Shown: positions 23,040-26,358 of the stretch, in pieces
Layout: every line of letters begins with the position of its first letter
Numbering within the stretch: the stretch's first letter is position 1
NCBI GenBank assembly: GCA_965219995.1
Contig: CBDCOX010000002.1
Location: forward strand, 3,680,001-3,744,000
Length of the DNA stretch: 64,000 nucleotides
Source: Candidatus Latescibacterota bacterium
GTDB lineage: Bacteria > Latescibacterota > UBA2968 > GCA-2709665
Direction of reading: 5' to 3'
Program-made: the position numbers and the translations under genes
The notes under the pieces: generated by a model
Seen by the model: only the letters and a program-made list of their open reading frames with translations
Databases searched by the model: none
Told to the model about the DNA's origin: nothing

Positions 23040-24038
23040 ATGTCTGGCAACAGGACATCAGCGGAGAATTCGAAAGAGACGCATGACGGTGGGGCGTCCG
23101 TCCGCGATATGACGGCGGCGCTTGATCGCGCCAAGGGGGCGCTGATCGGTCTCGCTTTGGGGGACGCGCTCGGCACGACGCTGGAATTTGCCGGCAGGGA
23201 TACAAGGCCGCAGGTTATCGAACTGGTGGGCGGGGGCCCGTTCGACCTGGCGCCGGGTGAGTGGACCGACGACACGAGCATGGCCCTCTGTCTCGCGGAA
23301 TCGCTTCTTGAACGGGGCCGGCTGGACGTTCACGATCTGATGAATCGGTTCCTCCGGTGGTATAAGGAGGGACATAACTCGGTCACCGGCATGTGTTTCG
23401 ACATCGGTGTGACCACGGAACGGGCGTTCCGGACTTTCAGCGAATCCGGGGAGCCGTTGAGCGGCAGCATCGATCCGCGCAGCGCCGGGAACGGATCTCT
23501 GATGCGGCTCTCGCCGGTGGCGATCCGATGGTGGCGCGACCGGGCGGAGGCGACGGCGGCCGCGCGTTTGCAGAGCCGCACCACGCACGGCGCCGCGCAG
23601 GCGGTGGAGGCGTGCGCGTTCTATGCCGAACTGCTGGTCGAGGCGATCGCAGGAGCGCCGAAGGAGACCGTCCTGCGCGCCAGAGAGTGGAGCGGCGACG
23701 CTCAGATCGCCGGGGTGGCCGCGGGGTCGTGGCGCGCAAAGGAACGCGACGCGATTTCCTCGTCCGGTTACGTATTGCACACGCTCGAAGCGGCCCTGTG
23801 GTGCGTCGATAGATCGGAATCCATTGAGAACGCCCTGATTCTGGCTGCCAATCTCGCCGATGACGCCGACACCGTGGCCGCCGTCACCGGTCAACTCGCC
23901 GGCGCGCTTTGGGGCATGTTGGGCGCTCCCGCCGGGTGGCTCGAGAAACTGGCGTGGCGCGGGCGCCTGGAAGCGCTCGCCACCGGCCTGTTCGAGACCG
24001 CCAACAGCGAGCGGGCCGACTGGAATGCCACCACCTAA
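23040..24038 (+). CDS. ADP-ribosylglycohydrolase (DraG/ARH family)
   Basis: GLALGDALG, WTDDTSM, GNGSLMR, DADTVAAV; start may be 23109. Confidence 0.9.
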   Translation: MSGNRTSAENSKETHDGGASVRDMTAALDRAKGALIGLALGDALGTTLEFAGRDTRPQVIELVGGGPFDLAPGEWTDDTSMALCLAESLLERGRLDVHDLMNRFLRWYKEGHNSVTGMCFDIGVTTERAFRTFSESGEPLSGSIDPRSAGNGSLMRLSPVAIRWWRDRAEATAAARLQSRTTHGAAQAVEACAFYAELLVEAIAGAPKETVLRAREWSGDAQIAGVAAGSWRAKERDAISSSGYVLHTLEAALWCVDRSESIENALILAANLADDADTVAAVTGQLAGALWGMLGAPAGWLEKLAWRGRLEALATGLFETANSERADWNATT

Positions 24039-24874
24039 CCCGTTAGACTTCCGTACCCCAGTCCCACGGCTTTTTTCACCGCCTCCAGCGTCCGCTGGCC
24101 CTCGATCCTCGCTTCCGACCCCCCCAGATGCAGGACGTCTCCGACCCGAGTTCGCGTACCTTCCAGCTGCGCCGCTGCGATCCGAAACGGCTCCTGCTCG
24201 GCATCCTTCCGCGCCGCCTGCGCCTCCCCATTTTTCGTCGTCCCAACCTGCTCTTCGGCATCCGCAAACCCAACCGCAATTGAGTCACCCACGCGCATTC
24301 CGGTATTTCCGCAGGGACCATTCATCCTTACGCTCTGCTGGTACCCGGGCAGAGGAAAGACGGTCCCGAATTTGCGATTGAATCGACGCGCTACTTCCCG
24401 GCACAGATTCGAGCGCATCCGCTGACCGGGGCCTGCAGCAACAATCGAAGGCCGGAATAGCAGCACGTCCGCCGGCTGAAATACCGTAGAACCGGCAGAC
24501 CCGAGTTCTGGCGACCGCCTCGCTGCATCCCGCTCCCGTTTCGCCTCCGGACCGTCCATCGGGGCGGGCAGCGTAATTGCATGATCGAGAATCATCGCCA
24601 ACTCCCCGAGTTGCGGAACCTGCGACTGCAGAAAGCAGACGCTTCGCTCCGGATCGAACCCGGAGGCCAGAAGATTCGTGACAAGCTTGCGAATGTTGAG
24701 TTCGATCCCGCGTGGATGTTCCCGATCCCTGCGCAATGCATCGAAGTCGGCGATCATGAAAAAACACCTTGCATCCGCCTGCCGGTCAAGCAGGTGTTTC
24801 AGGAACCCGATCAAGTGTCCCAGGTTCATTCGTTCCGTTGGCCGGACACCGGCCAGGACAATCGGACGTTTCAT
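24035..24874 (-). CDS. degenerate tryptophanyl-tRNA synthetase paralogue (lacks KMSKS and anticodon domain)
   Basis: GVRPTERMNLGH, FMIADFDAL, FLQSQVP, QPADVL, REVARRFN and C-terminal TLEAVKKAVGL follow TrpRS; frame open for 279 aa; GGGAG RBS. Confidence 0.8.
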   Translation of the reverse strand: MKRPIVLAGVRPTERMNLGHLIGFLKHLLDRQADARCFFMIADFDALRRDREHPRGIELNIRKLVTNLLASGFDPERSVCFLQSQVPQLGELAMILDHAITLPAPMDGPEAKRERDAARRSPELGSAGSTVFQPADVLLFRPSIVAAGPGQRMRSNLCREVARRFNRKFGTVFPLPGYQQSVRMNGPCGNTGMRVGDSIAVGFADAEEQVGTTKNGEAQAARKDAEQEPFRIAAAQLEGTRTRVGDVLHLGGSEARIEGQRTLEAVKKAVGLGYGSLTG

Positions 24875-24961
24875 TCTGAATACTCCCTATTTTCAAATGT
24901 CTCTTATTTGAACGACGGACCGGCGCCCGGGCGCCGCGTTGGGATGTGCGTTTAGCCATAC

Positions 24962-24998
24962 AAGAAAAGCCGCGATCCACCTTCAGGTGAACCGCGGC
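24962..24998 (-). terminator. attenuator terminator upstream of the TrpRS paralogue
   Basis: GCCGCGGTTCACC-TGAA-GGTGGATCGCGGC-TTTTCTT: 13-bp stem with two G-U pairs. Confidence 0.8.
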
Positions 24999-25120
24999 CA
25001 TCGCCACTCCTTCACGCACGGATCATCCGGTGGCGGACGCACGGCTCCCGTTGCCCCGAGCCACCAGCGGTGAAGGGAAATCGCCGCGTTACCAGACAGA
25101 ATGCCCGAATGTTGTGTCAT
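24983..25120 (-). CDS. putative Trp leader peptide 2 (45 aa)
   Basis: MTQHSGILSGNAAISLHRWWLGATGAVRPPPDDPCVKEWRWPRFT*; four Trp codons; starts 8 nt after the trpS stop with GAGG. Confidence 0.65.
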   Translation of the reverse strand: MTQHSGILSGNAAISLHRWWLGATGAVRPPPDDPCVKEWRWPRFT

Positions 25121-25128
25121 GGATAGCC

Positions 25129-26205
25129 TCACGATCCCGAGTCCCTCTGTTCGTCCCTGCGCATCCGGTCCCGGGCTTTCCGGGAGATCCGGTTCCAGAC
25201 GCCCGTGAGCCCCATCGCCTTCTTCATTGCCTTCAGCGTTTCATCGGCCACGACCTGGACGCGCTGCGTGCCTTCGTACAACACCTTTTCCACGTACCCG
25301 GAATCCGCTTCGTATCGCGCCCGGCGCTCACGGATTGGGTCCAGAAAACTGTTCAGCGCCCGGGTCAGCTTGTCCTTCACCTCCACGTCGCCGACCGTCC
25401 CGGCGCGGTACCGTGTCTTCAGATTCTCCACCTCATCCCGATCCGGGTTGAACGCGTCGTGGTAGATAAAGACCGGATTCCCTTCCACCTTGCCGGGGAT
25501 ATCCGCACGCACGCGGTTGGGATCGGTAAACATCCCGCGCACCTTCTTCTTCACCGTCTGCGCATCGTCAGACAGAAAGATCGCATTGTCCAGGCTCTTG
25601 CTCATCTTCGCCTGGCCGTCCGTACCCACCAGAACCGGGACCTCGCCGATCAGGGCGTCCGGAATGGGGAAGACCTCCCCGTAATAGCTGTTGAACCGCC
25701 GGGCGATCTCCCGGGTCACCTCGACGTGCGCCAGGTTGTCTTTTCCCACGGGAACCAGGTGCGCCCTTGGAGTCAATATGTCCGCCGCCTGCAGAATAGG
25801 ATATCCGACGAGTCCGAACGGGATCGCCTCTTCGTCCAGCCTGGCGGCGCGCGCCATATCCTTGATGCTGGGCAGCCGGGCGACTCTCGGCAGCGTCACC
25901 AGCATCTCGAAGAAGAGATCCATCTCGTAGACGGCGTGGATGGCCGACTGCAGATAAATGGTCGATCTGGACGGATCGATGCCCACGGCCAGGTAATCCA
26001 GCAGCATCTCCCGCACGTTCTCCCGAAGGGCATGGATGTGTTCCTTCTGCGGCCGGGTGGTGAGCATATGCAGGTCCGCCACGAGAAAATAACATTCGTA
26101 TTCGTCCTGCAGCCGGACCCGGTTTTTCAAGGAGCCCACGTAATGCCCCAGGTGCATCCGCCCCGTGGGACGGTCTCCCGTCAGAATCCGTTTCCGATTG
26201 TTCAT
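25129..26205 (-). CDS. trpS: tryptophanyl-tRNA synthetase (TrpRS II-like)
   Basis: [38 protein letters not shown]. Confidence 0.96.
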
Positions 26206-26217
26206 CGCGTTTTCCTC

Positions 26218-26252
26218 CAAAACAAAAATCCCCGCCGTGGACCGGCAGGGAC
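26218..26252 (-). terminator. attenuator terminator upstream of trpS
   Basis: TCCCTGCCG-GTCCA-CGGCGGGGA-TTTTTGTTTT. Confidence 0.85.
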
Positions 26253-26280
26253 GTTGACTTATCCAGATTGAATCTCAAGT

Positions 26281-26358
26281 TCAGCACGCAGTCAGCCGGC
26301 CGGTACGATTGAAGTCGTGCCACCACCAGCATCCGCTATGTATTCCGCGCGCCGTCAT
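26281..26358 (-). CDS. trpL: Trp leader peptide 1 (25 aa)
   Basis: MTARGIHSGCWWWHDFNRTGRLTAC*; AAGGAAGAGG RBS; ACCGGC can pair with GCCGGT of the terminator. Confidence 0.85.
   Translation of the reverse strand: MTARGIHSGCWWWHDFNRTGRLTAC

Follow-up and report, generated by a model that had tools for sequence, protein, structure and literature searches.

Why would a bacterium keep, directly behind its gene for tryptophanyl-tRNA synthetase (TrpRS), a second TrpRS-like gene whose product seems unable to charge tRNA? The question is raised by a locus on the minus strand of a stretch of 64,000 nucleotides from a Candidatus Latescibacterota genome (GenBank assembly GCA_965219995.1, contig CBDCOX010000002.1, positions 3,680,001 to 3,744,000; the bacterium is uncultured), here called the window, whose numbering is used throughout. 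In it, a canonical trpS is followed by a degenerate paralogue, TrpS*, and each of the two genes stands behind a short open reading frame (ORF) with Trp codons and an intrinsic terminator. A preliminary description of the window had proposed this order, and the ORFs, the sequence and a terminator scan confirm it; a search of the genome returned these two TrpRS-like genes only. We searched 168 genomes of the phylum for related genes and compared 21 loci of the family to which the window belongs (f1). The results make it reasonably probable that TrpS* is a non-catalytic protein, kept by selection and placed under Trp-dependent attenuation.

TrpS* retains a TrpRS core and has lost its catalytic motifs

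TrpS* is an uninterrupted frame of 279 residues, as first described, and its ATG is preceded by GGGAG at 8 nt. The neighbouring trpS keeps HLGH, GKDN and KMSKS and matches the profile PF00579 over its full length (E 1.3e-77). The match of TrpS* to the same profile (E 9.9e-19) is confined to residues 3-175, that is, to profile positions 5-181 of 292, and identity to trpS is 37% over residues 3-176. The PF00579 match and a Foldseek search, which returned TrpRS chains at a TM-score of ~0.7, both assign TrpS* to the W/Y-type class I Rossmann fold. Fold and family profile alike match TrpRS structures in the PDB, with the Thermotoga maritima enzyme (2g36) as the second-best sequence match of the profile. 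Against the NCBIfam equivalog TIGR00233, whose cut-off is 176.75 bits, TrpS* scored 107.7, below the line, and trpS 313.4, above it.

We then compared the catalytic motifs among TrpS* orthologues. In place of HIGH the window has NLGH, the orthologues have ILRH, ILGH, HRGH or HQRD, and the 234-residue form of genome G042 has YA--. GxDQ is replaced by GPGQ in the window and in its five closest relatives, GMRVG stands at the aligned place of KMSKS, and GSTVFQPAD is found where GYPxxQAAD is expected. These readings, together with ADFD for ADLH, agree with those of the preliminary description. Since the motifs erode differently lineage by lineage, TrpS* is, judging from its residues, not an enzyme.

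The anticodon-binding helical domain is likewise missing. An in-frame gap of ~50 residues is present, as had been proposed, but the loss is not a clean one: ~50 residues close to the KMSKS position persist as a degenerate stretch (177-228) that is modelled as disordered. In an AlphaFold2 model built from 19 sequences, the mean predicted local distance difference test score (pLDDT) was 68; the Rossmann core and two C-terminal helices were confident, and residues 182-226 fell below 50. The best-conserved parts of the protein are the first helix of connective peptide 1 (CP1) and the C-terminal helices. TrpS* keeps the core of the aminoacylation domain and a part of CP1, the interface through which TrpRS dimerizes, along with the C-terminal helices, which pack against that core. 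A role based on RNA-binding charge was considered and rejected; among TrpS*-type proteins the pI varies between 5.7 and 10.3 without a consistent trend.

TrpS* is under purifying selection

All nine loci with TrpS* have an open frame, even where identity falls to 35%. Across the genus (g1), trpS is 91-97% identical and TrpS* 46-76%, and pairwise NG86 estimates of the ratio of nonsynonymous to synonymous rates (omega) in the same genomes were 0.05-0.09 for trpS and 0.28-0.46 for TrpS*. A maximum likelihood codon model (GY+F3X4) fitted to the six genus orthologues gave an overall omega of 0.366 for TrpS* (2dlnL 111.5, p 4.5e-26 against omega = 1) and 0.044 for trpS; pairs and branches are not independent samples in these comparisons, yet the TrpS* result is far from neutral. 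Constraint is unevenly spread over the protein. In the same model omega was 0.34 in the core (residues 1-176; p 2e-19 against omega = 1), 0.19 in the C-terminus (229-279; p 4e-12) and 0.87, or neutral, in the linker (177-228; p 0.58), and region-wise estimates with bootstraps ranged over 0.27-0.48, 0.08-0.28 and 0.33-4.4 for core, C-terminus and linker, respectively. The neutral linker coincides with the part that AlphaFold2 leaves disordered.

The loss of catalytic residues combined with purifying selection is what defines a pseudoenzyme, and the suggestion that TrpS* is one, rather than a decaying pseudogene, is upheld: there are no stops in the nine orthologous loci, and omega is not near 1. 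As far as codon substitutions can tell, TrpS* is selectively maintained.

TrpS* derives from a second, Fe-S-type TrpRS

To which TrpRS does this protein belong? A word-indexed protein search with 5681 candidates gave 46 proteins at E up to 0.001. They include orthologues of 269-308 residues at 68-94% identity, a group at 46-47%, proteins of 332 residues with intact HLGH, GPDQ and KMGKS, and shorter forms of 234-258 residues. An exhaustive search of 1.84 billion representatives yielded no more than 7 clusters with an E-value of 1e-30 or below, so this truncated type of TrpRS is rare; the ESM Atlas gave TrpRS clusters only. In a quick tree, TrpS* and the second, 332-residue paralogue fell on one side of a branch with a Shimodaira-Hasegawa-like approximate likelihood ratio test (SH-aLRT) support of 99.8. 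In a careful tree, the TrpS* clade (support 78/84) was nested within the clade of the second paralogue, and canonical trpS formed a separate clade (100/100). The approximately unbiased (AU) test rejected a clade of TrpS* with the neighbouring trpS (p 6e-40), which disposes of a recent duplication of the neighbour, as the preliminary description had already argued.

The full-length relatives have a further signature. All 14 of them carry C-x20-C-x6-C-x2-C in the anticodon-binding domain, a motif found in 0/10 deleted forms, 0/9 TrpS* and 0/21 canonical trpS. A [4Fe-4S] motif of this kind, with a spacing of x21-24, is described for the T. maritima enzyme (TmTrpRS, PDB 2g36) in the portion of PMC2954223 available to us, which places the motif in organisms with one TrpRS gene as well as in those with several. 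TrpS* itself lacks C-x(20-24)-C-x6-C-x2-C in all nine cases but falls within the clade of paralogues that carry it. Because TrpS* is nested in that clade, whose full-length members have the Cys motif, it is the degenerate orthologue, in family f1, of a second TrpRS of 332 residues and of the 4Fe-4S-motif type. This origin was overlooked in the first reading of the sequence.

The same domain was lost repeatedly in a sister family

The first reading had also passed over relatives in which the same domain appears to have gone, in frame, more than once. In the sister family f2, 24 loci hold the second paralogue; 14 encode a full-length protein (one of them cut by a contig end) and ten carry in-frame deletions. 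Nine of the ten deletions share a junction that joins K-I to M-T, and the one in G091 has another; with the metagenome proteins P0015, P0017 and P0011, which show further boundaries, there are at least three different junctions overall. The f2 deletions remove KMSKS and the helical domain and keep the last helices. According to the part of PMC10201369 that we draw on, E. coli TrpRS has a C-terminal domain at 184-298, an aminoacylation domain made of 1-85, 140-183 and 299-334, and CP1, the dimer interface, at 86-139. On that scale, what is deleted corresponds to the C-terminal domain, and the aminoacylation domain and CP1 remain.

The shortened f2 proteins are as constrained as the complete ones, with an omega of 0.106 for eight deleted forms (28 pairs, dS 0.20) and of 0.095 for eight full-length forms. 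A structure model of a deleted form was confident (pLDDT 85.3, predicted TM-score 0.83). Among the five deletion forms of the f2 lineage that were tabulated, three already have an altered HIGH (YLGH in G086, HLEH in G090 and P0017). Constraint equal to that of full-length forms, together with a HIGH motif that is already changing, speaks for selection acting on a protein reduced to its core, in which the catalytic site is no longer required. The possibility that the anticodon domain is supplied by a split gene was rejected, as a 90-residue query for the lost domain met only canonical trpS, in five genomes (G000, G079, G082, G085 and G089). Full-length, freshly deleted and long-degenerate forms thus make up a natural series in which the parts that stay constrained can be recognized: the core, the first CP1 helix and the C-terminal helices.

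Two side observations concern the f2 deletion forms. In genus g11 (L009, L025 and other f2 loci among L010-L028), full-length alleles and alleles with an in-frame deletion of 83 codons occupy the same locus in different species. All nine deletion alleles share the junction of AAGAT with TATGACG; in the gene tree they are interleaved with full-length alleles, both kinds have an omega of ~0.1, and the AU test rejects a single clade of deleted forms (p 0.026). Such a pattern points to recombination across species boundaries or to a polymorphism that has persisted for a long time. Separately, the 248-residue deletion form at L025:1333-2079 (minus strand, genome G079), which is without KMSKS and the anticodon domain, scores 192.7 bits against TIGR00233. 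Because this passes the cut-off of 176.75, the protein would be annotated as a tryptophan--tRNA ligase, and deletion forms of the f2 type that pass it would generally enter databases as active synthetases.

Each gene has its own leader with Trp codons and a terminator

The preliminary description had given each of the two genes a Trp leader of its own, and conservation of the leaders and terminators supports this. Leader 1, preceded by the ribosome-binding site GGAAGAGG, is an ATG-started ORF of the type M..SWW[WRY][HY]D..TG[RQ]L[TV][AV]C* in 18 of the 21 f1 loci. In the consensus fold of these 18, a hairpin contains the Trp codons and terminator 1 is retained; the fold has 32 pairs, six of them changed on both sides. 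Leader 1 is missing in its usual form from the remaining loci: in G055 (L042) unrelated sequence takes its place, in G059 (L051) a deletion that lies between promoter-like site and terminator has removed it, and in G041 (L050) it has diverged and has no ATG ORF. Since leader 1 has been replaced, deleted or altered in these three, the control of trpS differs among close relatives.

Leader 2 and its terminator are found at all nine TrpS* loci. In the window the codons run from WW (25061-25066) through RPPPDD to W-R-W, and the stop lies inside the loop of terminator 2. The leader is homologous to that of the 332-residue paralogue in f2, with which it shares the motif RWW(W)-x6-V[CR]PPPD (found by pattern search at 21 of 22 f2 loci; an ORF scan added G061), and this homology indicates that leader 2 travelled with the gene. 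In f2, the canonical trpS (L062-L066) directly follows an HNH-like ORF and has no Trp leader, and only the second paralogue is under attenuator control. An alignment of terminator 2, comprising 17 of the 30 sequences located, has 13 pairs, six of them changed on both sides, with 93.2% of cells paired against 33-61% in slid controls, and its covariation score was reached by none of 500 shuffles.

Short ORFs with ribosome-binding sites and tandem Trp codons, each with a terminator ahead of the regulated gene, are what an attenuator is expected to show. Given leader 1 in 18/21 loci, leader 2 and its terminator in 9/9, and a terminator that covaries, the arrangement of two leaders with two terminators is, on comparative grounds, not due to chance. 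When the Trp codons of leader 2 were masked as if by a stalled ribosome, a constrained minimum free energy (MFE) fold predicted pairing of GGGAGCCGUG with the 5' arm of terminator 2 at -30.4 kcal/mol. Pairing of the GGGAGCCGUG type was also predicted in G050, G048, G046 and G055, which with the window makes five genus sequences; for G056 the arm was misplaced in this comparison. In f2 the predicted antiterminator pairing is a different one, between CCGG...UGGCG and CGCUACCGG, at -14 to -17 kcal/mol. The conserved PPP(D) codons, we infer, coincide in part with the strand pairing to the Trp codons. At these codons an unstalled ribosome could be kept on the antiterminator arm, which would give them the role of the stop codon in textbook leaders. 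Variable sites in leader 2 number 9, 10 and 14 of 16 at codon positions 1, 2 and 3, a distribution too weak to separate constraint on the peptide from constraint on the RNA. Rfam models scanned over 23500-27000 gave nothing near the gathering score (best E-value 1.4), hence there is no T-box at the locus.

The trp operon is present in the genome, so the host is not an obvious Trp auxotroph. Ahead of it (L061:6100-6420), a TTGACA-type site and a GTG-started ORF of 35 codons, many of them aromatic (2 W, 5 Y, 1 F), lie upstream of trpE, and the terminator CCGTGGGCATCTGCTCACGG with a run of T stands just before trpE. This element is probably another leader-peptide attenuator.

Losses of TrpS* and a possible relic

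TrpS* is found in six of the 15 genomes of genus g1 (G000, G053, G050, G056, G048 and G046), and shorter forms of 234-237 residues are found in three of the seven genomes of the rest of family f1 (G042, G043 and G044). In all nine holders it directly follows trpS in the order hemB-trpS-TrpS*-(ADP-ribosylglycohydrolase); at the other 12 f1 loci compared, the convergent gene comes straight after trpS.

A number of observations weigh against a maintained role for TrpS*, or against TrpRS as its partner. The gene is dispensable, being absent from nine of the 15 genomes of its own genus. When genomes are ordered by trpS identity, those with TrpS* are interleaved with those without (G048, which has TrpS*, is 97.5% identical to G055 and G047, which lack it), and leader 2 with its terminator remains intact without TrpS* in G055 and as fragments in G057 and G058. 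In one DNA run, contigs of relatives join across the position of TrpS*. This interleaving, the remnants of leader 2 and the joined contigs indicate that TrpS* is ancestral to the family and was lost several times, and such repeated loss of the whole gene within the genus was not noticed in the first reading. The evolutionary rate of TrpS* is roughly eightfold that of trpS (omega 0.37 vs 0.044), and its CP1 residues 104-129 are variable and poorly modelled. Co-variation of trpS with the presence of TrpS* was rejected, as none of 72 variable trpS columns separates holders from non-holders. In f2 the second paralogue lies at another locus, next to polA and a GNAT gene and unlinked to trpS. At 35 positions TrpS* has the residue of the second paralogue and at only 5 that of its neighbour, the 35 being clustered at 73-95 and 250-266. 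Because the second paralogue's residues are kept at these positions, a homodimer would fit at least as well as a heterodimer.

Attenuation, too, has observations against it. The constrained fold of leader 1 kept the terminator and returned no antiterminator, and its 2:3 pairing was found by eye. In many relatives the frame of leader 2 extends through the terminator, and the position of its stop varies, unlike in textbook attenuators. In an RNA run (X1) from a relative ~85-95% alike, contigs cover leader 1, parts of trpS and leader 2, and none covers TrpS*; contigs alone cannot show absence and the relative may lack the gene, which makes this result uninformative either way.

The losses could mean that TrpS* is a slowly dying relic. 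It would then have had no positive function since the anticodon domain was lost; omega would lie below 1 only because a misfolded or half-decayed subunit still able to pair with the essential TrpRS is harmful, and the gene would be kept foldable until it is deleted as a whole. Absence from most genomes of the genus, interleaved lineages, leader remnants and contigs joined across the gene are what such a course would leave behind, as are an omega eight times that of trpS, a neutral linker and catalytic motifs free to decay. It accounts less well for a frame that stays open at 9/9 loci down to 35% identity, for leader and terminator being kept along with the gene, and for deletions that are all in frame and all remove the same domain. 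A pure relic is, above all, hard to square with an omega of 0.19 in the C-terminal helices and with f2 deleted forms that are constrained like full-length forms at dS 0.20. We regard a relic as unlikely, with some probability left for the version in which the gene is kept harmless until it is deleted.

A putative dimerization module, probably made under Trp starvation

That TrpS* is a selected, non-catalytic protein under Trp-dependent attenuation thus remains the reading we consider probable. How would it be expressed, and what might it do? Since a consensus scan found no promoter-like site between trpS and TrpS*, the most likely source of TrpS* is read-through transcription that begins at the trpS promoter. 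Such a transcript would then pass two Trp-codon attenuators in series, and because both must be passed, TrpS* would appear only when charging of tRNA-Trp is low.

The retained parts suggest that TrpS* could act as a dimerization module through a TrpRS-type interface. Its partner may be the co-transcribed TrpRS; TrpS* adjoins trpS in 9/9 f1 loci, conservation is seen in the C-terminal helices and in CP1's first helix, and duplicated aminoacyl-tRNA synthetases are known to form hetero-oligomers (PMC4787780). Bacterial TrpRS binds tRNA across its subunits (as stated in the excerpt of PMC10201369 used here), and for this reason a TrpRS:TrpS* heterodimer, which would have no functional combination of active site and anticodon domain, could not charge tRNA. 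TrpS* would in that case tune or brake TrpRS during starvation. Within the reading of a selected protein, a heterodimer with TrpRS is a possibility to which we give tentative preference; a homodimer with another role, or some other partner, is only a little more doubtful and, for the homodimer, nearly as likely as the TrpRS partnership. If TrpS* does pair with TrpRS, it would give the cell a simple genetic means of adjusting tRNA charging when Trp is short. One may go further and imagine that subunits without an anticodon domain, induced by ribosomes stalling at Trp codons, pair with TrpRS and switch off charging, which would create a starvation-triggered brake or a positive-feedback switch within one transcript; the same domain loss would have been selected repeatedly in relatives. 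This extension is speculative and we consider it rather unlikely.

As an alternative to a heterodimer regulator, the preliminary description had offered a sink or sensor for Trp analogues such as halogenated indoles. In this reading TrpS* would still bind Trp or indole analogues (halogenated Trp, indolmycin-like compounds) and buffer or sense them without catalysis. The Rossmann core is indeed kept, 8/9 f1 loci retain Gln-x-Ala-Asp in the indole pocket, and expression is apparently tied to stalling at Trp codons. The pocket itself, on the other hand, is not conserved. Close orthologues have Y, F, S, D or H at the Tyr position of GYP, and PTG has become PTE, PME or PMG. The indole-binding Asp, said to be kept, is present in the window (QPAD) but has been replaced by Ala in G056 and by Tyr in G043, and the Asp in place of the His of ADLH, correctly read in the window (ADFD), gives way to H, Q or L in orthologues that do not share it. 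Such a pattern, site by site, is unlike that of a ligand binder. As the pocket residues vary among close orthologues, a sink or sensor now seems improbable.

Finally, that the truncated core gained another adenylate-forming or transfer activity, as in truncated class I synthetase paralogues with new chemistry such as YadB, a paralogue of glutamyl-tRNA synthetase (GluRS), is very improbable, for although f2 deleted forms mostly keep HLGH and GPDQ and are strongly constrained, TrpS* of the window has NLGH, GPGQ and no KMSKS, these sites differ between orthologues, and the surrounding genes (hemB, trpS and, convergently, one for an ADP-ribosylglycohydrolase) include neither a carrier protein nor a biosynthetic cluster.

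Layout of the locus

The features of the locus are collected in Table 1. Upstream lies hemB, and the convergent ADP-ribosylglycohydrolase gene touches the stop of TrpS*. The letters of the promoter-like site are identical in six genus loci among the loci listed. Just upstream of that site, at 26484-26593, there is a tandem array whose periods are 8, 18 and 35 and whose units resemble ACGAGAAA. Contigs of the DNA runs reach a depth of 340-720 over the array, compared with ~50 nearby, and show 35-base length variants; the repeat is probably variable or present in multiple copies. The C-terminus of TrpRS (25129-25200) has a basic tail of ~25 residues past the usual TrpRS end, which is conserved across f1.

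Table 1. Positions and basis of the features assigned at the trpS-TrpS* locus.
Feature	Position in window	Strand	Description and basis
Promoter-like site TTGACA-17-TATCGT	26398-26426	-	Upstream of leader 1; consensus scan, 10/12 matches
Leader peptide 1, MTARGIHSGCWWWHDFNRTGRLTAC and stop	26281-26358	-	25 codons + stop; WWW at 26320-26328; sequence
Intrinsic terminator 1	26228-26252	-	10-pair stem + U tract; 23 nt before trpS ATG; scan
trpS, canonical TrpRS	25129-26205	-	358 aa from ATG; TTG-started ORF begins 26220
Leader peptide 2, ending ...HRWWLGATGAVRPPPDDPCVKEWRWPRFT and stop	24983-25120	-	45 codons + stop; sequence
Predicted antiterminator arm GGGAGCCGUG	25040-25049	-	Pairs with 5' arm of terminator 2; constrained MFE
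Intrinsic terminator 2	24968-24999	-	14-pair stem + U tract; scan
TrpS*, degenerate TrpRS paralogue	24035-24874	-	279 aa; ORF, Pfam, motifs and structure model
Parts of TrpS*			Core + CP1, residues 1-176; degenerate linker, 177-228; C-terminal helices, 229-279

Comparison with known systems

To our knowledge, regulatory dead paralogues of aminoacyl-tRNA synthetases are few. The classic case is HisZ, a subunit of ATP phosphoribosyltransferase that resembles histidyl-tRNA synthetase. A full-text search of the literature found neither a truncated or dead bacterial TrpRS paralogue nor a dead regulatory paralogue derived from TrpRS. The GluRS paralogue YadB has, like TrpS*, lost its anticodon-binding domain; unlike TrpS*, it is an enzyme with its catalytic motifs intact. 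The nearest parallel in arrangement is TrpRS1 of Streptomyces coelicolor, an auxiliary, attenuator-controlled, indolmycin-resistant synthetase whose gene is likewise a second TrpRS gene behind a Trp-codon leader peptide and a terminator. TrpRS1 is active, whereas TrpS* appears to be no synthetase, and at the locus described here the housekeeping trpS also has a leader, so that the attenuators are serial.

The full-length relatives of TrpS* resemble TmTrpRS in their C-x20-C-x6-C-x2-C motif in the anticodon-binding domain; TrpS* differs from it in having neither that segment nor the catalytic motifs, and the spacing in the relatives is x20 as against the x21-24 given in the portion of PMC2954223 cited above. 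In Anabaena, a stress-induced paralogue of the dimeric threonyl-tRNA synthetase (ThrRS) can pair with the housekeeping subunit (T1/T2), as described in the excerpt of PMC4787780 consulted here. Both Anabaena subunits add activity, whereas TrpS* has none to add and its pairing is putative. The trypanosomatid prozymes of S-adenosylmethionine decarboxylase and of deoxyhypusine synthase are, like TrpS*, inactive paralogues kept by selection, but in the accounts of them available to us they activate or regulate the live enzyme through a proven complex, as HisZ does, and a TrpRS:TrpS* dimer should, from its cross-subunit geometry, be inactive rather than activated. TrpS* is best seen as a pseudoenzyme derived from an aminoacyl-tRNA synthetase and placed behind a putative amino-acid attenuator.

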